From the IMG/VR virus record IMGVR_UViG_2660238061_000007: DNA of 12,000 nt. One strand, given 5' to 3'. This document shows positions 100-11,736 of the stretch, one piece after another; the first letter of the stretch is position 1, and each line of letters opens with the position of its first letter. This DNA is from a virus (Duplodnaviria > Heunggongvirae > Uroviricota > Caudoviricetes). The translations under genes and the position numbers were made by a program. The notes under the pieces were generated by a model. The model was not told where the DNA came from, did not search any database, and saw only the letters and a list, made by a program, of their open reading frames with translations.

Positions 100-261
100 T
101 ACTTTTGCGCCTCCCAGCCGGACCGGCGCTGCGGCGTAATACGCGGCAATTTCACCAATCCAGCCGGTCAGCCTTTCCCGCTGCTCCTGACTGTTCGCGC
201 CCAGAATAAAATCCATCGCTGACTGCGTATCCAGCTCACTCTCAATGGTGGCGGCATACAT
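100..261 (-). CDS. Hypothetical protein, N-terminal 54 codons only (truncated by gap)
   Basis: Minus-strand ORF starting with ATG at 261..259 (MYAATIESELDTQSAMDFILGANSQEQRERLTGWIGEIAAYYAAAPVRLGGAKV), running into the N-gap; no family recognised. Confidence 0.3.
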
Positions 262-342
262 CGCCTTTATGAAAAGACAGGAAAAAATAAAATTTAAAAA
301 CAGTACATTACGAATGCTCAGACCTATCGTTTAAAGGAGTCG

Positions 343-363
343 CAATACACACTGCAATACACG
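343..363. repeat. Terminal direct repeats GCAATACACA x2 (candidate integrase arm-type or att-associated sites, left island end)
   Basis: gcaatacacactgcaatacac here is 20/21 identical and co-oriented with gcaatacacattgcaatacac at 11035-11055 beside the integrase gene. Confidence 0.5.
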
Positions 364-699
364 ATTATTTATAAGATGAGCGGCATCCGTCATAAAGCTG
401 GTGGATGCTTTTTCTATGCATATATGCACAGTTTTAGTGGGCGTTAATGTCGATATAGGGATCCCCATATCGAGATTGGATACCTGGCTTTTTTCCGGTT
501 AACCTTTAATCAGGCTGGTGGGCTTTACCTGTTTTGTATGAGTGGTCATCATGACCATGTCATAACAAAAACCCCATATTCGTGGTTTTTCTGTGTCGGG
601 CTATTCTGTCGTTGCTGTGCTGATTTGGCTGGTGGGCTGAATCATCATTACGGCGATGCAGCTATGTAGACGTTCCGGCCTCCTCAAATTGAGGATTGT

Positions 700-830
700 G
701 GAAGAATCAATGGGTTAGTCTTACTTTCCCGACATCCCCCAATGGGGGTTTTCGAAACAATCAATAGCTTAGGCTTACTTCCCCGATTTCCTGCATTGCA
801 GGTTTTCGAAATAATCAATGGGTTAGGCCA
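700..830. repeat. About 2.5 copies of a ~54-bp tandem repeat, each copy containing a short GC-stem palindrome
   Basis: Unit GGTTTTCGAAA(C/T)AATCAAT(A/G)G(C/G)TTAGGC at 746-774 and 800-828, partial copy at 700-719; spacers TTACTT(T)CCCGA... are also related; palindromes CCCCCAATGGGGG (735-747), CCTGCATTGCAGG (789-801), GTGCAATTTTGCAC (835-848). Confidence 0.7.
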
Positions 831-1076
831 TCGTGCAATTTTGCACTTTGCCAGCCAGCGCAATGTCGCGTTATCAGTCCTCAGATGTGAGGGATGTAGC
901 CAGCTTTTCCCCCAGTGGGGGATATCCAGCACCGACGGCTTAACTGTGCGTGCCAGCACAAGGTAGCCTTGAACTACTTACTGCATCCCATCTTACAGGC
1001 CGTGCCTTCCTGCTTAACTTTTTGCAATGCAACAAGTCAGCCAGCGCAATTTTGCGTTATCGGGAATATCAGCAAG

Positions 1077-1358
1077 TTACCGCCGCAATCGTTCCGGCTT
1101 CTTCCACTGGTAAGTATTTTTCGCGCTCTCCCTCCGTTGTTGAGAACGGCGACGATATGCCAGCAACTCAAGGACTCTTGTTCGTATGTTGCGCATATCC
1201 ACGCCGTTAAGCTCAATACCGTCACGGCGCATCACCTCAGCCACTACACGCACATAATTATCTGCGGTCACGCTGTCCGGCTGCGTGGCCTGTTCGTCAT
1301 GCTGCTTGCTGATTCCACAAGCACGGCGGATTAATCGCAGTATTTCGGATTCAGTCAT
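1077..1358 (-). CDS. Hypothetical small basic protein (93 aa) downstream of terS
   Basis: Protein-like composition (MTESEILRLIRRACGISKQHDEQ...), same strand and operon position as terS; competing plus-strand ORFs are low-complexity. No confident family. Confidence 0.45.
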   Translation of the reverse strand: MTESEILRLIRRACGISKQHDEQATQPDSVTADNYVRVVAEVMRRDGIELNGVDMRNIRTRVLELLAYRRRSQQRRESAKNTYQWKKPERLRR

Positions 1359-1440
1359 AGCGTACTACGTTACTTATCTTTATTCGGCTGCAACTTATCC
1401 GGTACGTTTCCGGCAGTTTCCATCAGATAATCGGACAGCA

Positions 1441-1911
1441 TCAGCGGTATGTTTTCGTCAAGTTTTGCGCATGCGTTACAGGCTCTGATAACTTCTTTTT
1501 CAGTCCATCCAGCATAGACGGCTTCATGTCGGGAAACTTCCTTGTCATGGCAAGCGGCAGGCTGTCCATGATTGAAGAAATCTGACTCGCCAATTTTGAA
1601 AGCACGTATATACAAAACGCTGTATCAATAACGTCGCCGCGTTCGCGCTCGTTTTTAAGCTCCTGCGCCTCTGCCTGTGCTGTCAGCAATCTGATCCTGA
1701 CTCGTAGGAGTTCATCATCATCAATCTCGCCTTTGTCGTCTGTAATCTGGTTAATTGCATTGCTAACCCGATTGTCTATTACGCTGGCAACATCATAAAA
1801 CGCCTCGCGGCCTTTACGTTCAACGGGAGTCACTCCCCACTTGTCGAACGCTGTCGCACTTACACGGCAGCTTTGCGCCATGTTTTTTTTGTTCATCAGG
1901 TGCGATTTCAT
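1441..1911 (-). CDS. Small terminase subunit, lambda Nu1-like
   Basis: Translation aligns by eye with lambda Nu1: LLTAQAEAQELKNERERGDVIDTAFCIYVLSKLASQISSIMDSLPLAMTRKFPDM versus lambda LTRAQADAQELKNARDSAEVVETAFCTFVLSRIAGEIASILDGLPLSVQRRFPEL; N-terminal MNKK motif also shared. Start is ambiguous (ATG at 1923, 1911 or 1896); 1911 has the best SD (GGGGA). Lies about 130 bp downstream of a cosN. Confidence 0.9.
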   Translation of the reverse strand: MKSHLMNKKNMAQSCRVSATAFDKWGVTPVERKGREAFYDVASVIDNRVSNAINQITDDKGEIDDDELLRVRIRLLTAQAEAQELKNERERGDVIDTAFCIYVLSKLASQISSIMDSLPLAMTRKFPDMKPSMLDGLKKKLSEPVTHAQNLTKTYR

Positions 1912-2022
1912 CAATATCCCCACTTAAGTAATGTTTCAGGTTGGTGTATTGGCTTTATCTTTTCCTTTTTATTCATAGAGATAGAGCGAACAACAAAACC
2001 ACCACCAGCACCCGAAAAAGGC

Positions 2023-2061
2023 TCATAAATAGCGAAAACCCGCGAGGTCGCCGCCCCGTAG
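2023..2061 (-). other. cos: Lambda-type cos site (cosN with 12-nt cohesive end GGGCGGCGACCT)
   Basis: Minus strand reads CTACGGGGCGGCGACCTCGCGGGTTTTCGCTATTTATGA, matching the remembered lambda cos junction over about 37 nt; positioned immediately upstream of the Nu1-like gene as in lambda. Confidence 0.85.
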
Positions 2062-2112
2062 CCTACCGGATCGCCGGAAAGGACCCGCCAGCCAGAACGG
2101 GCCCTAATTTCA

Positions 2113-2496
2113 TCAACCAATCAACTTATAGCGACCATCCCGTGCATTGCGACGTACACGCTCAATCTTGAGGCATAGCGCCGCATCTGGCTTTTTTGGG
2201 ACAGGTACGCGGCAATATTCAGAAGATCGAGGAATATTGTTTATCCAGTCGATCACTTCACTTAAATACCAGGCCTTACGCCCTTCCGTAACCTGCACAC
2301 GCTCCGGGAACTCTCCACTAGCCTCAAGGTTTAGCAATGTGCGACGGCTAAGGGTAGTAAGTTCCATCACCTGATTCATATCAACAAGGCGTTCACTTAA
2401 ACGCATTTTGTCAGCAATAGCCTTTAATTCCTCTACTGCTGGATCCGGATACATCATTTCGGCAATTGGCTTAAGGTCATTGTAATGATTCTGCAT
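2113..2496 (-). CDS. AlpA/Xis-family HTH protein with N-terminal extension (127 aa)
   Basis: Central segment MELTTLSRRTLLNLEASGEFPERVQVTEGRKAWYLSEVIDWI fits the AlpA-type HTH pattern; strong SD (AGGGGGA) 4-5 nt upstream of the ATG, 11 nt after the gpD-like stop. Confidence 0.7.
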   Translation of the reverse strand: MQNHYNDLKPIAEMMYPDPAVEELKAIADKMRLSERLVDMNQVMELTTLSRRTLLNLEASGEFPERVQVTEGRKAWYLSEVIDWINNIPRSSEYCRVPVPKKPDAALCLKIERVRRNARDGRYKLIG

Positions 2497-2507
2497 TGTA
2501 TCCCCCT

Positions 2508-2849
2508 TTACACACGAGCCAGCGGCTGAACAGAAATACCTGAGCCAACAAACGCGGCAACCTTTGCCGACAGTTCTTTTACAGACTCAGGCCAGTTCAG
2601 AGCATCAACATTTAAAACACCTGTCTTATAAACCTGTGCCTGTGTTTTTTTCGCTGTGTCGATTTGTACAGCGGAAACATAAACCGCTTTACCTACGCTC
2701 GAACCATCCCATACCACCAGTGCACCTGTTGCATCTTCCTGCATCAGTGGCGTAAATGCAGGAATTACCCCTTTATTAGCTGAAAATATCCCCAGCGTAG
2801 TCACCAGTGCTTCAGTGCCAGCCATGAGTTCAGTGTAATGAGTAGCCAT
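2508..2849 (-). CDS. Head decoration protein, lambda gpD-like
   Basis: Shared motifs with lambda D by eye: TPLM, VVWDG (lambda VAWDG), YKTG (YKSG), NWPE (LWPE), AAFVGSGISV (TAFAGTAISIV); similar length (113 aa); SD GGGGGAG upstream. Confidence 0.8.
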   Translation of the reverse strand: MATHYTELMAGTEALVTTLGIFSANKGVIPAFTPLMQEDATGALVVWDGSSVGKAVYVSAVQIDTAKKTQAQVYKTGVLNVDALNWPESVKELSAKVAAFVGSGISVQPLARV

Positions 2850-2858
2850 TGCTCCCCC

Positions 2859-3905
2859 TTAGCCAATGCGAACGGTAACAAAACGATTGATGCGGGCCGG
2901 TATTGGCTGTGGTGCTGAATGTGTCTGCACATATTCAATAGCCGGATCACCAGGCACAATATAGTTTTTCGGTGCAAGTTCGGCTTTAGTCAGCCCCATT
3001 CGGATTAGCTCCGGATCCTGAATACCGCCATAGGCGACAATCCCCTGAAGAGCCGTATTGCCAAGCACCATCAAATCAGGATCAAGGAAATGTTTTTCTG
3101 TTCCGTCCTCGTCGGTATAACGCCCGCTGTAAACAACAATCGCAACATCGCCCATATACCCTTTAAAACTCACCGAATCACCAAGGTCTTTAAGGGCCGT
3201 TTCCAGTTCGGAATTAGAACCACGACGGGTATCCAAAGCCTCTTTTATCGCTCTGAATGAACGGTATTTCTTCCATACATTACCACCCATAATGATGATA
3301 TTAGTGACGCCCTCACTAAATTCTGCGTAGCTCTCAATATCATCATTTGGATCAAAAGTTTCTTTATCCTTACCTGACCACTCAGTACCGCCAGACTGAG
3401 TGATGATATTTTGTGGTTTTATATTCCAGTCCAGCTCATAACGTTCAATACCATCGCCCTCAATGATATTTTTCCCCGTTGTGATTGCCTGAACAGCAAG
3501 CCATTCAATACGTGCACGAATAGCTTTAGCCTGATTTACAATCGCCTGTTTAACTTTAATATTACGTGCCCCAAAAGCATTGTATTGCTCAGGTGATACA
3601 CCAGCAGGGCGCACAGCTAACTTATTTGGATCAATGCTGCTTTTCGGCTTCATATAGCCTGGACGAATTGTTTTTGATTCGTACCCTTCGTCACGTGAAA
3701 CTTTACTACCCACCATAGGAGAACAAAACGCTGCAATTGGGATATTTGGATCGTCGATTGTATCAAGAATAATATCGCGCGATTCAAACATTACCGAGCG
3801 AGTAAAAAACAAACTGGTAAACAACGCATTTAGTTGTTTTTGTACATCTACAGCATTAACCACCTGTACAAGCTGAGTAGGCGAATATAAATCAACCATA
3901 CGCAT
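2859..3905 (-). CDS. Major capsid protein, lambda gpE-like
   Basis: Strong similarity by eye to lambda E: NIITQSGGTEWSGKDKETFDPNDDIESYA versus NITQSGGTEWSKRDKSTYDPTDDIEAYA; DTRRGSNSELETALKDLG and GDVAIVVYSG and MVLGNT conserved. Start set at the internal Met (MRMVDLYSPTQL, like lambda MSMYTTAQLL) with SD AAGAGG; the ORF-track extension to 4112 is judged non-coding. Alternative start 3899. Confidence 0.9.
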   Translation of the reverse strand: MRMVDLYSPTQLVQVVNAVDVQKQLNALFTSLFFTRSVMFESRDIILDTIDDPNIPIAAFCSPMVGSKVSRDEGYESKTIRPGYMKPKSSIDPNKLAVRPAGVSPEQYNAFGARNIKVKQAIVNQAKAIRARIEWLAVQAITTGKNIIEGDGIERYELDWNIKPQNIITQSGGTEWSGKDKETFDPNDDIESYAEFSEGVTNIIIMGGNVWKKYRSFRAIKEALDTRRGSNSELETALKDLGDSVSFKGYMGDVAIVVYSGRYTDEDGTEKHFLDPDLMVLGNTALQGIVAYGGIQDPELIRMGLTKAELAPKNYIVPGDPAIEYVQTHSAPQPIPARINRFVTVRIG

Positions 3906-4073
3906 CCTCTTTGCATTCATTAAAAATAATTGTGGATATATGCTACCACCGATATTTGTCATGCGAACACATGCAACCGAGTGCAATGTTGTATAAAGTT
4001 TTGGGGTGACAACTTCAGTGCGGACAATTAGTGTTAATATCTTCACTCCCTTTGGTCGGGATTTATGTAGCAT

Positions 4074-4107
4074 GCCGGAAAATTTATTTTTTCCGGCCTT
4101 TTTTATT
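4074..4107. terminator. Hairpin with T-run (intrinsic-terminator-like) between ssb and the capsid gene
   Basis: GCCGGAAAA (4074-4082), loop TTTATT, TTTTCCGGC (4089-4097), followed by CTTTTTTATT on the plus strand; the minus-strand reading lacks a U-run, so the strand of action is uncertain. Confidence 0.4.
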
Positions 4108-4115
4108 GGCAATAT

Positions 4116-4565
4116 TTAAAACGGGATATCATCTCCCCATTGCTCATTATCTCCCACTGGTGGCTGGCTTCCTTGCTGATCTGCCTGTTGTTTTGCTCTG
4201 TTCAGTTCGTCAGTAGCCTGCCCCTGTTGGCCTTTTTTGCCGCCCGGTCGCGCCGTTCGCGCACTGATTACGCTGTCTGCGATAACCTGCCAGCCCCGCC
4301 GCGTTTCGCCGTTCTGGCCTGTCCACTGGCTTACCTGCATGTTACCCGCCACGCTCACCAGTTCGCCTTTGTGGTGTTTTGCCAGTGCGTCGGCCTGTCT
4401 GCCAAACGCCAGGACGGATAACCACATCGTCGCCGTTCCGTCATCTGCCTGGCTGCACGGCAGGGGAACCGCCATACTCGCCATCGCCATTTGTGTCCCT
4501 TTGCTGGTGGTCTTTAACTGCGGGTCAGCCACCAGCCGCCCGTAAGCCGCTATCTGTGCTGTCAT
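4116..4565 (-). CDS. ssb: Single-stranded DNA-binding protein (SSB)
   Basis: C-terminal acidic tip ...WGDDIPF as in E. coli SSB (DDDIPF); OB-fold region resembles SSB; Gly/Gln-rich linker. Start overlaps the upstream ORF stop (ATGA). Confidence 0.85.
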   Translation of the reverse strand: MTAQIAAYGRLVADPQLKTTSKGTQMAMASMAVPLPCSQADDGTATMWLSVLAFGRQADALAKHHKGELVSVAGNMQVSQWTGQNGETRRGWQVIADSVISARTARPGGKKGQQGQATDELNRAKQQADQQGSQPPVGDNEQWGDDIPF

Positions 4566-4876
4566 GCTGTCTGCTCTCCGGTTTTAACATTGATGGTTGT
4601 CACCTGTTCCGCTTCGGCAATCTCCCGTTCTGTCAGCGTGGCAAAGTTTGCCGCTGCTGTGGTCATGAATGCGCTTATCAGGTCGGGATGTTCCTTCGCG
4701 TATCCTGCCCGTGTGTGGTGGTCTATCGCTTTGATTGCCACCTTTAAGGAAAGCTCTGTCATGTCTAACGCTTTATATTTTGCCTGTGTTCTGTCTCTGC
4801 GAATTTTGGTCATTTGTCGCCCCTGATTCATGTTTTCGGCTGGCATGTTTATTAAGTGATTTTTATGTATGCGCAT
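4562..4876 (-). CDS. Hypothetical protein (up to 104 aa), translationally coupled to ssb
   Basis: ORF with ATGA overlap to the ssb start; no recognised family; start uncertain (internal Mets at residues 11, 16, 22). Confidence 0.45.
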   Translation of the reverse strand: MRIHKNHLINMPAENMNQGRQMTKIRRDRTQAKYKALDMTELSLKVAIKAIDHHTRAGYAKEHPDLISAFMTTAAANFATLTEREIAEAEQVTTINVKTGEQTA

Positions 4877-4925
4877 TTATTTTCACCCCCCCCTCGTTTA
4901 AAAAGTTTTTAGTTGTGCCTCCCCC

Positions 4926-5145
4926 CCTCTACCCATCTACCCGAATGCTCATCATGTCAGTAATGGCGCGGCTTTCAGCGGGTAGATAGCTTTTTGACTC
5001 CTCTACCTGCCGTCTACCCTGCTACCTGAAACTGATAAAATCAGGTAGAAGAGGTAGAGAGCTTTTATTAGCCTTCTACCTAGCCCTATACCCACTTATC
5101 ATGTTGAATAATATGCGTTTATTTTGTTCAGGTAGATGGGGTAGA
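4926..5145. repeat. ori: Iteron-type replication origin (about 11 copies of GGTAGA/TCTACC, often in tandem pairs)
   Basis: ctctacccatctaccc (4926-4942), ggtagata (4981), ctctacctgccgtctaccc (5001-5019), ggtagaagaggtagaga (5043-5059), ttctacct (5076), ggtagatggggtagatgg (5132-5149); flanked by AT-rich and poly-C tracts; immediately 3' of the primase gene. Confidence 0.7.
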
Positions 5146-5161
5146 TGGCTTTTACAAAAAA

Positions 5162-6916
5162 TTATAAAAACGCGTCGCAATCGTCTGTTGTAATTGCGTT
5201 GGTCTGCGTTACTCCCTTAACTTTTCGCGTAATATATTCATGCCCGTAAACTTTCGCCGCTGGCTTCATGGCCTTGCTGAACTCAGCCACGTTTAGCGGT
5301 TTGCTCCTGCCCGCGTATGCCATAAACGCCAGATAGACGCGGTAAAGGCTGTTCCTGGTCGTGTACTTCACTGAATCACCACCGCCACCCATCATCAGGC
5401 CGCGCGCTTCCTCCAGAAAATTCAGGAACTGGCAAAACTCAATAACCGGATCCGTCTGTTGCTTTATTGCCAGTGCTTCATCACCGTCACGCTGTTCCAG
5501 TAGTAAAGCCCGTGCCTTCTCAGGGTCGGTAAAGTTCGCCAGCAATCGGCGGATAATAACGGGGATTTCAGCCGCAATCTTTTCCGGTAGCTCCCTGTCT
5601 TTTTCGGCCTCACTGACGATATTGTCGAAACGGAAAATCACGCGACGACGTGCCACACCTCCGGCCCGTTCGGTGAATATCATCGGGTTGTTGTTGGTCG
5701 CCAGCACCACCGCCCTGATTACCGCCGTGAAACGCTTTTCATATTTCGGGTTAATTTCCACGGGGTCGCCGCCTGTGATTTTCTTGATGCCCGTTCCTTC
5801 GCCTGTATATTTCGGCTGGTCAGCCAGGACGATAAGACGACTCCCGACAACCTGCGCACGTCCACCAGCATCATCAAGCGATGTCATTTCAGCGCTTACC
5901 GTGTTCTGTTTCCCTGCCAGAAGGCTGGCTATGTGTGTGAATGTACTTTTACCGCTCCCGCCGTCTCCGGTGGCCTCAATAAACATCTGCCAGTCGTACC
6001 GGTTCGCCATAATCATGTACAGCGCGGCACATATACGCATCATCTTGCGCGGGTCTTTTCCGGCTGCGTGCTCAAGCCATTTATGAAAGTTTGGCGCGTT
6101 ATCGCGGATGTTCTCCCCTGGTGCTGGTGGCGTGTACTCAATGCCGTTGTGCGTGGTGATCCAGTTCTCCGGCGTGTGCGGGGAAAATTCCCCCGTTTTC
6201 AGGTCAAGCGCACCATTGGCGAACGGCAGCAAATCGCCAGACGGCTCGCCCATTGGTTCGGCAATAACTTTTAACGCTTCCACGGCGTTATTGATTACGC
6301 GCTTGCTGAAAGTGGCCCTGTGCTCTGAATAGATCGCCACCATTTCGCGGCTAAGTTCCATTGTGCTGACCGGACACCATACCCCGCCGCGCCATACGTG
6401 AACGATTTCACTTTCAGGATGTACGCAAACGCCATCAAAGCGATCGGCAAGCAACTGCGCGCGCTCACTGTCCGCCATCTGCGAAAGTTGCGCCTTTTGC
6501 TTTACCGGAAGCTCAATGACCAGACCATCAGAAAGATTCTGGCGTTCACGGGCCAGATATTCGCGCCAGTTCTGCACCTCCTGGCCGTGCATACCCTCAG
6601 GATAAAAATTTGCATCCTGTACGCCTGCTGCCGCCAGCTTCTGACCAATCGCCTTTATCATTACAGGCGCAAGATATCCGGCCCTGTATATGCGTGCTGA
6701 TTTTCGGCCTTCCGGCACAATTTGCAGATTATCCAGTTCGGATAGCTGCTGCTCCCCAAGCCACACAGGAGGCTCATTATCTCCGGCCATACGCGCATCA
6801 TGTTCCTGCCATTGTTTCGCGTGTGCCCAGGCATCACTACCCGCAAAAATAATGACTTCTGTTCCTTTGTGTTTTATGCCGCGTGACTGCTGTTTTACGT
6901 TCGGTGCCAGTTTCAT
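5162..6916 (-). CDS. P4-family primase/helicase (SF3 helicase-like P-loop NTPase), replication initiator
   Basis: 584-aa ORF with Walker A GDGGSGKST and a D5/P4 primase C-terminal-like region; SD GAGGT 6 nt upstream; followed by the iteron ori, the typical pri-ori layout of PICI/P4-like satellites. Confidence 0.85.
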   Translation of the reverse strand: MKLAPNVKQQSRGIKHKGTEVIIFAGSDAWAHAKQWQEHDARMAGDNEPPVWLGEQQLSELDNLQIVPEGRKSARIYRAGYLAPVMIKAIGQKLAAAGVQDANFYPEGMHGQEVQNWREYLARERQNLSDGLVIELPVKQKAQLSQMADSERAQLLADRFDGVCVHPESEIVHVWRGGVWCPVSTMELSREMVAIYSEHRATFSKRVINNAVEALKVIAEPMGEPSGDLLPFANGALDLKTGEFSPHTPENWITTHNGIEYTPPAPGENIRDNAPNFHKWLEHAAGKDPRKMMRICAALYMIMANRYDWQMFIEATGDGGSGKSTFTHIASLLAGKQNTVSAEMTSLDDAGGRAQVVGSRLIVLADQPKYTGEGTGIKKITGGDPVEINPKYEKRFTAVIRAVVLATNNNPMIFTERAGGVARRRVIFRFDNIVSEAEKDRELPEKIAAEIPVIIRRLLANFTDPEKARALLLEQRDGDEALAIKQQTDPVIEFCQFLNFLEEARGLMMGGGGDSVKYTTRNSLYRVYLAFMAYAGRSKPLNVAEFSKAMKPAAKVYGHEYITRKVKGVTQTNAITTDDCDAFL

Positions 6917-7212
6917 TTTTTACCTCTGAATCCGTTAATCATGGTTTTCATTTTCTGGATATTTCCCCACGCTTTTTCCCTGCTGATGGGCTTACTGCGG
7001 GGTGCGGCATATACCAGGGGAAAATCACGCCGGAACTGATAAACAGGCATCACGCAGTCATAGCTATACCCCTCACGGCGGTAAGTGATGCGCCGTTCTG
7101 CCACGCCTTTAATCGTTACCGTGCCGCCGTATTTATCGCGGTAAATATCGCCGTTCATAAATTCAGGTCGAGCGGGGCCGCTGGCAATAAAGCCAGAATT
7201 TTTCATTTCCAT
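6913..7212 (-). CDS. Hypothetical protein (99 aa), stop overlaps the primase start (ATGA)
   Basis: Translational coupling to the primase; SD-like GAGGAA upstream; no family recognised. Confidence 0.55.
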   Translation of the reverse strand: MEMKNSGFIASGPARPEFMNGDIYRDKYGGTVTIKGVAERRITYRREGYSYDCVMPVYQFRRDFPLVYAAPRSKPISREKAWGNIQKMKTMINGFRGKK

Positions 7213-7229
7213 ATTATTTATTCCTCGAC

Positions 7230-7451
7230 TTAACTCGACTTATTTGATAGCAGGGCACTATTTATTGCGTCATTGAGTTTTTCTGCTGATTCATCAATAA
7301 GTGACAACAGGCCATAAGCAATATTTGCATCTTCATTGTCATTTATGCAATCAAGCCACATATTTAATATTGCTTTTGCTGAATTATTTAAAGTTAATGA
7401 ACTTTCTGCACATGCTAACAATTTAAAAAAGACTTCCCGTTCTGTATTCAT
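7230..7451 (-). CDS. Hypothetical small acidic protein (73 aa) in an AT-rich block
   Basis: SD GGGGGA 4-5 nt upstream; stop of the upstream ORF directly abuts the ATG (TAAATG); local composition visibly more AT-rich than neighbours. Confidence 0.5.
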   Translation of the reverse strand: MNTEREVFFKLLACAESSLTLNNSAKAILNMWLDCINDNEDANIAYGLLSLIDESAEKLNDAINSALLSNKSS

Positions 7452-7643
7452 TTAATCCCCCACCAGCTTACTTTCTTCCTCAATCAAAAAACTAGCGACA
7501 CTTCCCGAAAGACGCGCCAGTAGGCTCGCCAGTGCGGATATATCAGCATCTGTAATTTTGTTCGGGTATACCTCAAGAAGGCGGCAAATAATTTCTGTCT
7601 GGTGCGCACGTTCAGCGGCTTCGTGTAATGTAATTTCCTGCAT
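7452..7643 (-). CDS. Hypothetical small acidic protein (63 aa)
   Basis: SD AGAGGTG upstream; start overlaps the upstream stop (TAATG); part of the coupled operon. Confidence 0.5.
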   Translation of the reverse strand: MQEITLHEAAERAHQTEIICRLLEVYPNKITDADISALASLLARLSGSVASFLIEEESKLVGD

Positions 7644-7828
7644 TAATGCACCTCTTTTAATTCATACACTGCTGAAATAATGACTTGTGATAAGCCATAT
7701 TCTGATGATTCGCTTCTCACCGCAGCAATAGCCGTCTGAACATTAACAGCCTTCACATTCTGAGCGATACCAATTGTGTGGCCTATTGGGTTAACAGCTC
7801 GGGCAAATACACGGAAGGTTTTAAGCAT
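7643..7828 (-). CDS. Hypothetical small protein (61 aa), first gene of the operon ending in the primase
   Basis: SD GGGAG 7 nt upstream of the ATG; preceded by a roughly 380-bp regulatory intergenic region. Confidence 0.5.
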   Translation of the reverse strand: MLKTFRVFARAVNPIGHTIGIAQNVKAVNVQTAIAAVRSESSEYGLSQVIISAVYELKEVH

Positions 7829-8047
7829 GACTCACTCCCTGGCGGATTTTTGCAGCGAATACAGCAACACAACCGGACGGGCAACGGCTACGCGCTTCGC
7901 GTTCCGTCCAGGCGGTTACGTGGATGATTTGAGATTCTCCGGCACTCAGTGCCAGAAAACGCCACACAAAGGCCGTTTGTGTGTGTACAAGGTGTGGTAT
8001 ATGATTTACAGCAACCATAACGGCTCCTAGTTTACGTTGTTGGTTAG

Positions 8048-8090
8048 ACGCCCCGTATGTGTTCCCAGCACTGCGGGGCGTTGCTCTTTG
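8048..8090 (+). terminator. GC-stem hairpin with downstream T-rich tract (terminator-like or regulatory structure)
   Basis: ACGCCCCG (8048-8055), 18-nt loop, CGGGGCGT (8074-8081), then TGCTCTTTGTATTTC. Confidence 0.3.
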
Positions 8091-8109
8091 TATTTCAACA
8101 ATCCTTTCG

Positions 8110-8188
8110 GTGTGTTTCATGTTATGAGCGCATGAAACACACGTCAAGGCTTTTTGTATTTCTTTTTTTGTGTATACTGAAACACACC
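8110..8188. promoter_or_regulatory. Operator/promoter region: perfect 12-bp inverted repeat plus a third half-site overlapping a -10-like TATACT
   Basis: GTGTGTTTCATG (8110-8121), 9-bp spacer, CATGAAACACAC (8131-8142); TGAAACACAC again at 8179-8188 next to TATACT (8173-8178); SD AGGAG 8 nt before the ATG at 8209. Confidence 0.6.
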
Positions 8189-8208
8189 GATGATTAGGAG
8201 TTTCAGAA

Positions 8209-8514
8209 ATGGCAACGGCTAACAAAAACGCAAAATCACAACTGACAACTGTCAGAGTCCCACTAGATGTTATGCAAGGGATGGAATCCGTTAAGCTGGA
8301 CGGTGAAAGCAATGCCGGATTTATCGTAACCGCCATGCGCGGAGAAATAGCCCGCCGCCAAGCAGAAGGCAGCGGAGAAAATCCCCTTGTGTCGTCACTG
8401 GATGCCCTGGCTAAGGTCGAACAAATCGGCATCAAAGCAGCCGAGGAGATCGGGCAACTCGTCACCGTCGCGCGTGAAGAACTCCAGCGACGCAAGGTCA
8501 AAGAGCATGAATAG
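8209..8514 (+). CDS. Putative ribbon-helix-helix DNA-binding protein (101 aa), candidate island regulator
   Basis: Excellent SD (AGGAG, 8-nt spacing); N-terminal LTTVRVPLDVMQGMESVKLDGESNAGFIVTAMRGEIARR fits a beta-strand/helix/helix RHH pattern; transcribed divergently from the small-gene/primase operon, beside palindromic operators. Confidence 0.55.
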   Translation: MATANKNAKSQLTTVRVPLDVMQGMESVKLDGESNAGFIVTAMRGEIARRQAEGSGENPLVSSLDALAKVEQIGIKAAEEIGQLVTVAREELQRRKVKEHE

Positions 8515-8571
8515 CCAATATCAGCGCCATAGTTTGAGGAACGCAGGCGCATTGCTTTACAGGACAGCACC

Positions 8572-8751
8572 ATGAGCGACACAGAATCAACCAAAACACC
8601 ATCACCAACTCGTAAGAGACGACGCAAAAATATAGCGCATGAACATGAATCAGAAAGATTCGCACCTTGTTCGTTTGCTCTTGAGAAATTCCTTAAAGAG
8701 CACAGGAAAAAGCTCTCGTTGCAAACCTTGGAACGAACCAAATCTGACTGA
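8572..8751 (+). CDS. Hypothetical small basic protein (59 aa)
   Basis: ORF below the 60-aa track cutoff, found by manual translation (MSDTESTKTPSPTRKRRRKNIAHEHE...); AGGA 7 nt upstream; followed by an intrinsic terminator. Confidence 0.35.
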   Translation: MSDTESTKTPSPTRKRRRKNIAHEHESERFAPCSFALEKFLKEHRKKLSLQTLERTKSD

Positions 8752-8817
8752 TCACATTGCCCACCAGCCGCAAATGTGGCATTGTTGGTGATGCTTTTGT
8801 TTTCCCTTGTTCCCACT

Positions 8818-8847
8818 GGCGACCCTTTTGCGGTCGCCTTTGTTTTG
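8818..8847 (+). terminator. Rho-independent terminator of the plus-strand two-gene unit
   Basis: GGCGACC (8818-8824), loop CTTTTGC, GGTCGCC (8832-8838), then TTTGTTTTG. Confidence 0.6.
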
Positions 8848-9426
8848 TCACTGAATGCGGTTACCAAAGTAAAACTCAGGCTGATATTCACGTATCAGCG
8901 TTTTTTCTTCTTCCTCCAGCTCACGCTTTTTGCGCTTACATGCCTGTAGCTCCCTCCCCTTCTCGCTGGCACTTATTTGATATTGCTCTTTACGGCGGGA
9001 AAAATCCTGTAATGCACCCCACGGGATACCATAAGTCCCCGTTTTTCTGATACCTGGTATCACATTTCTGAATACCCAGTTACTGAAACGATGAGCAAAT
9101 GTGCCAGGCGTCGTTGCTTTGCGGCTGCGGGCTATTAGTTTGTAGAAACCTGACTCAGAGATAATTCTCATATTCTGATTTCCTCCTGGGGTGTAAGTTA
9201 AATTTACTCCCTTTTCATCATCATCAAGCATCTGCAACGCCGTACGCGAATTGGTTAGTTCCAGCGCAGCACAAACATCTTTTGCAACAAACCACGGATC
9301 GCCGTTCAGATACACCACACGAACGTTCACACTATCAAAGCGCAGAACGACGAGATCACGAATATCGCAGAATTTTTTCACTGGACGAGCGTACCCCTTG
9401 CCCGTCACGGCAATATTTTTATTCAT
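8848..9426 (-). CDS. Bro-N domain protein (putative antirepressor-like)
   Basis: Bro-N hallmark segments VRVVYLNGDPWFVAKDVCAALEL, GGNQNMRIISESGFYKLIARSRK and FSNWVFRNVIPGIRKTGTY. Confidence 0.8.
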   Translation of the reverse strand: MNKNIAVTGKGYARPVKKFCDIRDLVVLRFDSVNVRVVYLNGDPWFVAKDVCAALELTNSRTALQMLDDDEKGVNLTYTPGGNQNMRIISESGFYKLIARSRKATTPGTFAHRFSNWVFRNVIPGIRKTGTYGIPWGALQDFSRRKEQYQISASEKGRELQACKRKKRELEEEEKTLIREYQPEFYFGNRIQ

Positions 9427-9444
9427 CGCGTTTTTACCTTATAG

Positions 9445-9470
9445 ACAAAAAACCCCTCGTGATGAGGGGC
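9445..9470 (-). terminator. Rho-independent terminator after alpA
   Basis: Minus strand reads GCCCCTC ATCAC GAGGGG TTTTTTGT, located between the alpA stop (9483) and the Bro-N start (9426). Confidence 0.55.
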
Positions 9471-9482
9471 ATTATTTACTGG

Positions 9483-9740
9483 TTATTGCTGTTTTGTTTT
9501 TCCAGGTTTCCATCCAGGATGCCACTCACCACGGATCCATGCCTGAACCTCTGAAAGTCGATACCCTGCAGCACGTTCACCGATCTTGATACGTCGCGGG
9601 AATTTACCTGCCTGCTCCATTTTCCAGCGTGTTGAGTTTGCCAGCGTGGTAAGTGCTATGCACTCTTTTTCACGAATGAACCGATCAATGTCCTTCATTG
9701 TGCGCAAATCGTTTTCATCAACAAGAGAATAAATTGCCAT
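9483..9740 (-). CDS. alpA: AlpA-family transcriptional regulator/excisionase-like HTH protein
   Basis: 85-aa protein with AlpA-type HTH (ALTTLANSTRWKMEQAGKFPRRIKIGERAAGYRLSEVQAWI); start 1 nt after the integrase stop, the typical int-alpA pairing of P4-like/PICI elements. Confidence 0.8.
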   Translation of the reverse strand: MAIYSLVDENDLRTMKDIDRFIREKECIALTTLANSTRWKMEQAGKFPRRIKIGERAAGYRLSEVQAWIRGEWHPGWKPGKTKQQ

Positions 9741-9741
9741 A

Positions 9742-10983
9742 TCACACCACCTCTTTATTAAGCTCGATAACGTTGTTGTTAAATCCTGCTATCGTATTAA
9801 GGTAATTAACCCACATATTAAGCACCTCAAGTTTTTTCTTTATATGCCTGCTTTTATTGTAAACACCAGCAACCCCTTTCACTTTATGACCTAAAAGAAG
9901 TTCGACAATATAAGGATCCGCCCCCATATCATTAAGCGTAGTGGAAAATGTGCGCCTGAAATCATGTATGCACCACAAGCCATTAGTATCATGACCAAGA
10001 CGCCTGCATATTCTGTTTGCAGCCCCTGTTATTGTCGCCCTTTGCAAAGCACAACCGACAACATAACCGCGATTTTTTGTTTCTGCGTAAAGATTAACGA
10101 TCCATTGTTTTATTCCGTCAGGAACAGGCCTTACTATAGCCTCCTTGTTTTTGCTGTGCTCTTTTGGGACTGTCCATACCCAGTTTTTTAAATCCCATTC
10201 GTCCCAGGTGGATAGCCTCGCCTCCTGCTGTCGGCAACCAAACACCAGGCAGATAACCATTATTCTTCGGTTATATATTGATGACAGAGTTAGCAAATTA
10301 TTACCGTAAGCATAAGACCATACATCAGCGGTTTCATTGATATTAAGAACGCGATCCCTTATACCGGATGAGCGCCCGACATAACTTACGTTAATATCTC
10401 CAAAGGGATCGCACGCGATGTATTGCCTGACGCGACAAAAACGCAACGCCTGTTTGATATCAAGAAAAATTGCACCAGACATAACAGGCGCATTTTTTTT
10501 GATCCTGTCAAAGACGGTAAGCCATGTGTGTAATTTGCACTGTTCTATAGCCATATCACCGATATAGGGGAAGATATGCTTTTCAAATCGTTTTATTAAA
10601 TATTCATGCTCTTTTCTGGCTGTTGTGGCGTGATTGTCGTACCAGTAAAACAGCGCATCCCTTACGGTCACTGGTTGCATAGTTTTTTCGGCAGCAAGTT
10701 TTATTTGCCTGCGGGGGTCCAGATTTTCAGCCAGCCATTCACGGCACTGATCACGCATGCGCCTGGCCGTTGCAAGAGACATGTCAGGATAGCGACCAAG
10801 TGTAAGCCATACCGGAGGGGATTCCCTGCCACCAAGACGATAGTAAAAAACAAAGCTGATCCCCCCAACCATGCTTACACGCACAGACAACCCGCGCCCA
10901 TCCGCTATTGTTTTTTGTTTGTCCTGCCGTTTTCCGACAAGACTCTTTAACAGTTTGTCACTGAGTTTGTTTTCAATAGCCAT
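9742..10983 (-). CDS. int: P4-type tyrosine integrase
   Basis: 413 aa; P4-family N-terminus (DKLLKSLVGKRQDKQKTIADGRGLSVRV...LGRYPDMSLATARRMRD) and catalytic-region motifs (HDFRRTF, LLGHK, Y near C-terminus); SD GAGGG upstream. Confidence 0.95.
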   Translation of the reverse strand: MAIENKLSDKLLKSLVGKRQDKQKTIADGRGLSVRVSMVGGISFVFYYRLGGRESPPVWLTLGRYPDMSLATARRMRDQCREWLAENLDPRRQIKLAAEKTMQPVTVRDALFYWYDNHATTARKEHEYLIKRFEKHIFPYIGDMAIEQCKLHTWLTVFDRIKKNAPVMSGAIFLDIKQALRFCRVRQYIACDPFGDINVSYVGRSSGIRDRVLNINETADVWSYAYGNNLLTLSSIYNRRIMVICLVFGCRQQEARLSTWDEWDLKNWVWTVPKEHSKNKEAIVRPVPDGIKQWIVNLYAETKNRGYVVGCALQRATITGAANRICRRLGHDTNGLWCIHDFRRTFSTTLNDMGADPYIVELLLGHKVKGVAGVYNKSRHIKKKLEVLNMWVNYLNTIAGFNNNVIELNKEVV

Positions 10984-11003
10984 TAAAAGCCCTCAAGAGA
11001 TTT

Positions 11004-11056
11004 GCAATACACACCCATCCCGATCGCCAATTTGCAATACACATTGCAATACACAA
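11004..11056. repeat. Three copies of TTGCAATACACA beside the int promoter (candidate integrase arm-type or att-associated sites, right island end)
   Basis: gatttgcaatacacacc (11004-11020) and gcaatacacattgcaatacac (11035-11055), co-oriented with the copies at 343-363. Confidence 0.5.
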
Positions 11057-11245
11057 AACCGCGAAAAACTGGAAGGGTGATGAACGGTCATCAAAAGCAT
11101 GGAAAACGACATTCCAGACGCAGCAAGGGTTTCAGTGGAGTTGGCGAACGATGCGGGCAACTACGGTGAGATGATAGACATAAATCGCCTTCACAATGGC
11201 GCTCTGCAGCTGCGTGTTCTGCAGCGTGTCGAGCATCTTCATCTG

Positions 11246-11255
11246 NNNNNNNNNN
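11246..11255. other. Assembly gap (N10)
   Basis: Run of 10 N. Confidence 0.9.
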
Positions 11256-11309
11256 ATTGTAATGACAACGTTTCGCGGCTATTCTTGTATTGTTTGGATG
11301 CAAGAATGG

Positions 11310-11360
11310 CCCCCGTGGTGTTGTCAGGTGCATACCTGCAACGTGCGGGGGTTTTCTCTC
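11310..11360 (+). terminator. GC-rich stem-loop followed by a T-run (terminator-like)
   Basis: CCCCCG...CAGGT GCAT ACCTG...CGGGGG followed by TTTTCTCTC. Confidence 0.4.
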
Positions 11361-11726: not shown

Positions 11727-11736
11727 NNNNNNNNNN
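11727..11736. other. Assembly gap (N10)
   Basis: Run of 10 N; the FII-like reading frame does not continue across it. Confidence 0.9.

Follow-up and report, generated by a model that had tools for sequence, protein, structure and literature searches.

A likely ribbon-helix-helix repressor, its probable operators and a candidate antisense RNA in a Gram-negative phage-inducible chromosomal island, lying between its alpA and replication genes

The locus described here raises the question of what keeps the replication genes of Gram-negative phage-inducible chromosomal islands (PICIs) silent. It lies in a 12,000-nucleotide stretch of IMG/VR virus record IMGVR_UViG_2660238061_000007 (Caudoviricetes), hereafter the window, in which an opposite-strand gene for a protein of 101 amino acids (aa) separates alpA from the replication genes in an element that is a helper-embedded PICI in a lambdoid portal gene. 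In the working model, a master repressor keeps Gram-positive PICIs off while Gram-negative PICIs are switched on by AlpA; a global repressor in the latter has been called "unclear", and the difference between the two groups "a mystery" (PMC6092414). No repressor of Gram-negative PICIs is named in the later literature that was searched. The module described below, in which a likely ribbon-helix-helix (RHH) protein appears to be paired with operators of its own, represents a known kind of switch in an element class without a previously described repressor.

The perfect 12-bp inverted repeat with a 9-bp spacer that had been noted in the preliminary description of this DNA is present exactly. Its arms, GTGTGTTTCATG (8110-8121) and CATGAAACACAC (8131-8142), are complementary at 12 of 12 positions, flank an AT-rich spacer and form the left operator, O_L. 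The full inverted-repeat pattern was matched in none of 200 dinucleotide-preserving shuffles, with three mismatches allowed. The 10-mer TGAAACACAC occurs in three exact copies, all inside 8110-8187, where chance would give about 0.02 per 24 kb by our own arithmetic, and no further copy was found in the 12-kb window with one mismatch allowed. The third copy (8178-8187) abuts the -10-like hexamer TATACT, as had also been described, and its 13-nt extension (8178-8190) is the perfect complement of 8107-8119. A degenerate fourth half-site, TTGTATTTCT (8154-8163), matching at 7 of 10 positions, lies upstream of the same hexamer. The sites themselves therefore stand, whereas their earlier grouping as a single palindrome plus an orphan half-site does not, because the fourth site resolves the region into two operators formed by four ~10-bp sites at a centre-to-centre spacing of 21-24 bp. 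Of the two back-to-back promoters, each has its -10 bracketed by one operator. The divergent arrangement likewise stands, but not its reported size of 380 bp, since a 65-aa Icd-like gene lies inside that interval and the true intergenic gap extends over 190 bp (8019-8208).

Loci from other genera and from other Escherichia coli islands were compared, the leftward -35, which is conserved, serving as the anchor for aligning their intergenic regions. Across the aligned family, the protein is near invariant over its C-terminal two-thirds, and the variable segment comprises residues 11-17, the putative DNA-reading β-strand. Eight β-strand types, two closely related pairs included, each go with their own half-site type at fixed positions. 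Strands LTTVRV and LFTVRV accompany half-site GTGTGTTTC in E. coli, Xenorhabdus, Photorhabdus and Serratia, and SLTARI accompanies GTGTAAG in E. coli and Enterobacter soli. The remaining pairs are QISIRI with GTGATTC (island L014), LKNIRI or VKNVRI with GTGTGTATTTA (L007, L011), MKNIRF with a further motif (L016), QLNARF with TGGTATTCA (L018), QINARF with TGGGATTCA (L012) and ALKARV with GTGTGGCCCAC (EcCICFT073). O_L and the right operator, O_R, change together in each island, the O_R halves of other classes being GTGTAAGAC..GTCTTACAC in L006 and TGTGATTC..GAATCACA in L014. Over 16 islands, β-strand identity correlated with half-site identity (Mantel r = 0.68, p = 2e-4), the corresponding test on the spacer between the arms giving r = 0.12 (p = 0.18). 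In the same set, half-sites are 86% identical between islands with the same β-strand and 45% identical between islands with different ones, the corresponding values for the spacer being 59% and 52%. Half-site type follows the protein and not the host taxon. Because half-site sequence covaries with the β-strand regardless of host taxon, sequence comparison supports the repeats as operators of the 101-aa RHH protein, and this covariation is the strongest evidence obtained.

The repeats might instead act as RNA, through alternative hairpins like seqA/seqB/seqC of P4 or through attenuator-like immunity. Segment 8107-8119 does pair perfectly with either 8131-8142 or 8178-8190, and P4-family satellites use RNA immunity (PMC10111431). 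The probability of such a role is nevertheless very low: the sequence of the sites tracks a protein segment, the predicted leftward start near 8112 leaves sites 2-4 outside the leftward transcript, a rightward transcript would hold site 4 only, and no C4 or isrK matches were found in the window or in six related islands. In four classes (L007, L011, L016 and EcCICFT073), moreover, the O_L sites are direct repeats, which cannot pair; as these form no hairpin, an RNA-pairing role of the repeats was ruled out.

The position of the operators relative to the two promoters (Table 1) suggests what the protein would do. The leftward promoter, P_L, with a start predicted near 8112, reads into the operon that runs from the icd-like gene to the primase gene. 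It was the only sigma-70-like site returned by a two-hexamer promoter scan of 7700-8950, and its equivalents were the only sites found in EcCICFT073 (10/12) and in island L021 (10/12). By our own reading of the alignment table, a -35 of the form TTGACn and a -10 of the form TAnnnT, spaced by 17-18 bp, hold fixed positions across the listed islands. The right arm of O_L occupies the P_L spacer beside the -35 and the left arm covers the -10 through to the start site, so that a protein on O_L would occlude RNA polymerase. On the other strand, the position of the -10 of the rightward promoter, P_R, is kept as TATAAT, TATATT or TATACT in related islands. Negative autoregulation of P_R through O_R is plausible, and O_L, with its right arm immediately upstream of the P_R -35 position, could also exert positive control. 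Given the covariation and the bracketing of both -10s by operators, the 101-aa protein is well supported, by inference, as an autoregulated repressor of the leftward operon. Of the autoregulated repressor of the divergent replication operon proposed in the preliminary description, the pairing of repressor and operator is thus retained, on the covariation and on the placement of O_L over P_L, while its Stl-like master role probably does not stand.

The intergenic gap also contains a direct repeat, formed by GCTCTTTGTATTTC (8083-8096) and GCTTTTTGTATTTC (8149-8162), 66 bp apart. Within the former, TTGTATTTCA (8087-8096), 23 bp left of site 1, agrees with the half-site at 8 of 10 positions and could be a weak fifth site; this copy is not kept in the related LTTVRV-type islands.

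The 101-aa product is a member of the YlcI/YnfO family, matching the hidden Markov model NCBIfam NF041551 (YlcI_YnfO_N) over residues 9-50 with 63.3 bits against a cut-off of 30. RefSeq gives it the same name, and its 216 homologues are spread over Enterobacterales. The AlphaFold2 monomer model (mean predicted local distance difference test score, pLDDT, of 79) displays an extended segment at residues 11-17 and helices at 19-28, 35-54 and 59-100, with pLDDT values of 82-89 over the strand and the first two helices (residues 11-54). The model thereby contains an extended N-terminal strand and two helices of the lengths proper to an RHH domain; the N-domain covers residues ~9-54, ahead of a long C-terminal helix (59-100). 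It also superposes on solved RHH domains, the values tabulated in the protein analysis being 5.3 for TacA1, 5.3 for Rv0298, 5.2 for CopA_SO and 5.0 for PutA. Alignment by hhalign to Arc is in register (QFNLRWPREV against LTTVRVPLDV; E 1e-3, probability 22%), and to Mnt gave no real match (E 0.019, probability 2.5%). The Pfam family PSK_trans_fac, of the RHH clan, is matched by 21 of 28 family members, with a best E of 0.0011 and all matches below gathering. Foldseek and sequence searches of the PDB returned nothing useful, the N-domain profile giving noise only. A weak, helix-hairpin-helix-like resemblance of the C-terminal half to Hef (E 0.004, full-length profile against the PDB) was rejected, as AlphaFold2 gives one continuous helix. 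On these models an RHH fold is likely, and the C-terminal helix is presumed to mediate oligomerisation. That a dimer would place a two-stranded β-ribbon in the major groove at the repeated sites is supported indirectly by the covariation of β-strand residues with half-sites. The RHH-like N-terminus claimed earlier is therefore borne out as a likely fold, by the model and the superposition, and matches a curated RHH sequence family only below threshold. The two other claims on this product hold: the reading frame is well initiated, and, because no helix-turn-helix (HTH) family was found in it with Pfam or NCBIfam, the protein is not a recognisable Stl or CI-type repressor.

The leftward operon opens with the Icd-like gene (63.7 bits to NF033153, where 25 is the cut-off), whose stop overlaps the start of the next open reading frame (ORF; 7643-7828) by 8 nt. 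Across its ribosome-binding site, on the strand of the RHH gene, a candidate RNA that the preliminary description does not list was delineated from an alignment of 14 islands folded with RNAalifold, which gave 21 pairs, 8 of them with compensatory changes. The stem of hairpin 1 (8013-8045) includes the anti-start codon and its loop the anti-Shine-Dalgarno CUCC, and hairpin 2 (8047-8082) combines a G+C-rich stem with a U-rich tail, forming a terminator. Standard pairs are formed by 98.3% of the alignment cells on the plus strand, with 30 G.U, and by 88.4% on the minus strand, with 1 G.U. The minimum free energy in the window is -33.6 kcal/mol on the plus strand (z -3.8; 0 of 200 shuffles as stable) and -23.6 on the minus strand (z -1.6), while in EcCICFT073 it is -40.2 kcal/mol on the RHH-gene strand (z -6.4) and -24.6 on the opposite strand (z -2.0). 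Covariance model R1 has exactly one match per island, always on the RHH-gene strand, and also matches L010, L021, EcCICFT073 and the O157 island, none of which was used to build it; a 49-kb prophage control gave no match. Rfam has no match at the RNA site (window at E<=1, 7780-8260 at E<=10, six related islands at the gathering threshold), and C4 (RF01695) and isrK in particular match neither the window, nor 7780-8260, nor the six related islands. A -10-like TATGAT (8000-8005), lacking the TG, precedes the RNA in the window at a distance that is fixed among islands; an extended -10 (TGnTATGAT or TGnTATAAT) occurs only in EcCICFT073, L010 and L021. Since conservation of structure is strand-asymmetric and resides on the plus strand, a cis-antisense RNA of ~85 nt, at about 8012-8096, is likely.

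A second structure, a terminator-like hairpin inside the icd-like ORF, is common to L016, L018, L020 and L024 and was not seen in L002-type or Xenorhabdus-type islands. It is possibly a translation-dependent attenuator, which would terminate transcription when icd-like is untranslated. Terminator-like hairpins are over-represented in 7700-8950 as a whole, with 10 against 1.7 +/- 1.6 in shuffles.

Table 1. Positions of the genes, operators, promoter elements and RNA features discussed, in window coordinates
Feature	Coordinates	Strand	Remarks
65-aa Icd-like protein	7821-8018	-	First gene of the leftward operon; RefSeq-annotated; AGGAG 7 nt upstream of ATG
Terminator-like hairpin in icd-like ORF	7963-7983	-	Codons ~12-19; CACACAAA-CGGCC-TTTGTGTG, then GCGTTTTCT
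Candidate ~85-nt cis-antisense RNA	8012-8096	+	Two hairpins, over the icd-like ribosome-binding site
Operator O_L (putative)	8110-8142		Perfect inverted half-sites; over the core of the leftward promoter; geometry kept in 16 islands
P_L (predicted)	8119-8147	-	-35 TTGACG (8147-8142), 17-bp spacer, -10 TAACAT (8124-8119)
Operator O_R (putative)	8154-8187		Degenerate left half TTGTATTTCT and exact right half TGAAACACAC, which bracket the rightward -10 TATACT
P_R -10 hexamer TATACT	8173-8178	+	Direct reading; would drive the ylcI-like gene and orf59
101-aa YlcI/YnfO-family protein	8209-8514	+	Candidate repressor; AGGAG 8 nt upstream of ATG
59-aa basic protein (orf59)	8572-8751	+	Probably co-transcribed with the RHH gene
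Intrinsic terminator of the ylcI-like/orf59 transcript	8818-8838	+	7 pairs, 6 G-C, tail TTTGTTTTGT

The module is also found in EcCICFT073, the experimental prototype of Gram-negative PICIs, which encodes a YlcI/YnfO protein of 59 aa (9474-9653 of locus L023; 1380473-1380652 of NC_004431.1) on the opposite strand between alpA and the Icd-like gene, together with an orf59 homologue, class-specific operators and the RNA element, the expected ~85-nt RNA falling inside 1380759-1380873 on the strand of the YlcI-like gene; its module genes carry newer RefSeq locus tags only. In the O157 island, which occupies the same chromosomal site as EcCICFT073, the RNA element and the orf59 homologue are kept and the regulator differs, being an unannotated, unrelated, Arc-like RHH protein of 57 aa with palindromes of its own (GGTAATTACC, twice). 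In E. coli O157 644-PT8 (L024, NZ_CP015831.1), the ORF of this protein extends over 3610-3783 (+), with two GGTAATTACCAT palindromes just upstream, and downstream of it comes a homologue, 62 aa long, of the window's 59-aa ORF. Across this locus (3567-4014), RefSeq has on the other strand an 'Icd-like' pseudogene of 594 nt, which looks like a mis-call. The fixed position with non-orthologous RHH replacement argues for a functional slot. When the interval 8040-8514 was used as a query, 1210 of 5426 complete E. coli genomes gave at least a partial match and 325 gave >=80% query coverage.

We consider it moderately probable that these parts form an immunity-like lock of the Gram-negative PICI, composed of the RHH repressor and the antisense RNA and released by AlpA-dependent transcription. 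RHH dimers, joined by the C-terminal helix, would sit on O_L, covering the P_L spacer and start and keeping the replication operon off, and the weaker O_R would provide negative autoregulation of P_R. The ~85-nt RNA, made constitutively and transcribed convergently to P_L, would base-pair at the ribosome-binding site of icd-like and block translation of leaky icd-like transcripts; the downstream genes would be blocked through translational coupling, perhaps with polarity from the 7983-7963 hairpin. Release would come from AlpA-dependent leftward transcription entering from the int-alpA-bro side, rather than from a helper protein binding the repressor. Such AlpA-driven read-through, antisense to orf59 and to the RHH gene, would silence both by collision and continue into the replication operon. 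No strong minus-strand terminator was found between the alpA/bro side and the lock. A minus-strand hairpin inside the RHH ORF (8376-8351) would face leftward read-through from alpA/bro. The read-through model reconciles the module with the published epistasis of AlpA: in EcCICFT073, the helper induces transcription of alpA, and AlpA is the activator (Fillol-Salom et al. 2018, PMC6092414).

Several points weigh against the lock as just proposed. Over-expression of AlpA alone, with no phage, leads to excision and runaway replication of EcCICFT073 (PMC6092414), so the lock is not dominant; on these data it is downstream of, or overridden by, AlpA. The claim that the RHH protein is the master switch hit by a helper signal is accordingly not supported, as EcCICFT073 has the same module and yet is induced by AlpA alone. 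By sequence comparison, the protein of EcCICFT073 is without the C-terminal helix, owing to an in-frame deletion. The AlpA read-through is itself inferred, and several weak terminator-like hairpins stand on its path. P_R has no recognisable -35 and was missed by the two-hexamer scan in the window, in EcCICFT073 and in L021. The protein could be needed to activate P_R, and repression rather than activation is deduced from operator position alone. In the window the proposed antisense promoter is a weak one, with neither a -35 nor a TG extension, and was missed by the same scan in every island tested.

Were the RHH protein to silence the island by itself, and a helper protein or the island's own Bro-N protein to bind and release it, the locus would be a master switch of the Stl type. 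In Gram-positive PICIs, Stl/Rpr likewise lies divergently where the integrase and replication sides meet (PMC6092414), the adjacent Bro-N protein has strong matches to anti-repressor PHROGs, and the operator specificity classes resemble immunity types. We regard this as unlikely, however, because EcCICFT073 has the module but its helper works through alpA, AlpA alone sufficing without phage, and because Bro-N is degenerate and unannotated in EcCICFT073, and several islands with the RHH module lack it altogether. The EcCICFT073 remnant of Bro-N lies between alpA and the convergent cassette (L023 8767-9150). A role of Bro-N as a required anti-repressor is improbable, as EcCICFT073 is inducible with a degenerate Bro-N gene.

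Copy-number control is a serious alternative, compatible with the same binding events and not mutually exclusive with the lock: in the manner of CopG/RNAII, the replication proteins would be throttled by RHH protein and antisense RNA mainly after induction. The parts list is the same as in pMV158, with an RHH protein at the replication promoter and a counter-transcript over the ribosome-binding site of the first gene. A brake would be useful, as uncontrolled replication of EcCICFT073 is toxic (PMC6092414). As the principal function it nonetheless has a low probability, comparable to that of an Stl-type switch, because the repressor gene lies outside the controlled operon, which precludes direct dosage feedback through P_L, and because the RNA is directed at icd-like and not at the primase gene.

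The 59-aa basic ORF and the clean terminator after it, both reported earlier, are present, the terminator being a G+C hairpin with a T-run that is lacking on the minus strand. The 59-aa protein belongs to phrog_21027 (E 5e-15) and falls in 29 clusters, all from Escherichia; its core ERFAPCxFALEKFLKE is conserved, with in-frame indels, and tblastn against 50,697 phage records gave no match. Its homologue comes after the YlcI/YnfO gene in EcCICFT073 and after the different, Arc-like RHH gene in O157. This recurrent pair, with the RHH gene first and a small protein second, would suit a type II toxin-antitoxin system in which the RHH protein is the antitoxin, the 59-aa protein the toxin, and the palindromes serve the promoter of the pair only. 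Such a system is very unlikely and was rejected, since a downstream toxin is not conserved: L016, L018 and L021 have no such gene, and L014 (a 178-aa ORF) and L020 have another one, although the RHH gene and the operators are kept. The 59-aa family is furthermore limited to Escherichia while the RHH family extends across Enterobacterales, and the strongest operator is on the divergent promoter rather than on the pair's own.

Positions 101-11245 of the window match a locus of E. coli APEC O2-211 at 98.9% identity; there, the portal gene of a lambdoid prophage is interrupted by the island, with both sides seen. The minus-strand gene order is int, alpA, Bro-N, then, past two plus-strand ORFs, icd-like, three small ORFs and DUF4222, followed on the same strand by a D5-type primase, a single-stranded DNA-binding protein, a capsid-E-like protein, a decoration protein, a second AlpA-like protein and terS. 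With int, alpA and primase co-oriented inside a prophage late gene, the island agrees with the definition of helper-embedded PICIs, in which integration, Bro, replication and late zones are distinguished (Tommasini, Mageeney and Williams 2023, PMC10111431). The non-hypothetical genes of the model island are all unidirectional, and no divergent regulator is mentioned (PMC10111431). The order int, alpA (sometimes bro), opposite-strand RHH gene, icd-like, DUF4222 and primase is conserved in several islands, and capsid and decoration genes are present in the window element as in EcCICFT073. The second AlpA/excisionase-like HTH gene (2113-2496, -; phrog_2790, E 2e-48) belongs to the late zone, flanked by the decoration gene and terS and well away from the alpA next to int.

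Three runs, each of exactly ten N, were found at 90-99, 11246-11255 and 11727-11736. Beyond 11255 the match to APEC O2-211 ends, and this part holds a full-length rdlD antitoxin RNA (RF01813, 81.7 bits, 11292-11357, +) and a sok-like sub-threshold match; the window may therefore owe its right end to another location or to a scaffold join. The host lambdoid prophage has a YlcI/YnfO gene of its own in the flank outside the window (L001 16448-16681; 77 aa, DUF3950 E 5e-21), divergent from nohD and adjoining a DUF1398 gene.

We tentatively propose, at somewhat less than even confidence, that Gram-negative PICIs including EcCICFT073 carry an overlooked two-layer immunity module, RHH protein and cis-antisense RNA, which gates replication and has at least eight exchangeable DNA-recognition types, sometimes with an Arc-like replacement, and that these types are satellite 'immunity groups'. 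If this is true, immunity groups would decide which islands coexist or cross-silence in one cell. The literature searched on YlcI/YnfO, on Icd-like genes with antisense RNA, on PICI RHH proteins and on an EcCICFT073 repressor contained no description of the module. The repressor-operator pair between alpA and the replication genes offers a concrete, cloneable object for the repressor question, and the matched β-strand and operator variants provide a natural set for studies of RHH recognition. The small genes concerned are missing or wrongly called in annotations of the well-studied O157 and CFT073 genomes.

In portal-gene insertion, in the order integration, Bro, replication, late, and in its capsid and decoration genes, the island resembles the Gram-negative PICIs already described; it differs from the published accounts in that these treat the islands as unidirectional, hypothetical genes aside, name AlpA as the only regulator and do not describe the RHH gene, the operators or the antisense RNA (PMC10111431, PMC6092414). 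As with Stl/Rpr in pathogenicity islands from Staphylococcus aureus, a divergently transcribed regulator separates the integrase side from the replication module (PMC6092414). In contrast to Stl/Rpr, it is a likely RHH and not an HTH protein, and the prototype is induced through AlpA, with no helper anti-repressor known. The early operon begins with a small Icd-like gene, as in the immI region of P1/P7 (c4 RNA, icd, ant) and in P4 immunity (CI RNA, kil/eta), and its translation start appears to be the RNA target here as well. C4/isrK-type RNAs have been placed in the same zone of some PICIs (Tommasini et al. 2023, PMC10111431). The candidate RNA of the window, unlike those of P1/P7 and P4, would be cis-antisense and encoded on the opposite strand instead of being processed from the sense strand; Rfam C4/isrK models match neither here nor in the six related islands, and a protein repressor is also present. 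The module is not a C4/CI RNA system, nor is it a convincing toxin-antitoxin pair.

Closer parallels are found in pMV158 and in P22. The replication operon of pMV158 is under dual control by the RHH repressor CopG and by the antisense RNAII, which blocks translation initiation. Common to both is a replication operon on which a transcriptional repressor of the RHH type acts together with a counter-transcribed RNA, both being candidates here. The two differ in that CopG is encoded inside the operon it represses while the present repressor is divergent, and in that the RNA here would target icd-like, several genes upstream of the primase gene. The immI region of P22 comprises the Mnt and Arc repressors, P_ant and the sar antisense RNA, Mnt being an RHH protein that oligomerises through a C-terminal helix. 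The module differs from immI in having no detectable homology to Mnt and only a weak, in-register match to Arc, in having four sites in two operators as against one operator, and in controlling, in a satellite rather than a phage, an operon that begins with an Icd-like gene and contains primase but no antirepressor. As in immI, however, a putative RHH repressor with a C-terminal helix is divergent from the operon it would control, its operator overlaps divergent promoters, and a small convergent RNA, a candidate supported by strand-asymmetric covariation, lies over the ribosome-binding site of the controlled gene. By analogy, the module would work most like P22 immI and pMV158 CopG/RNAII, its closest functional analogues.

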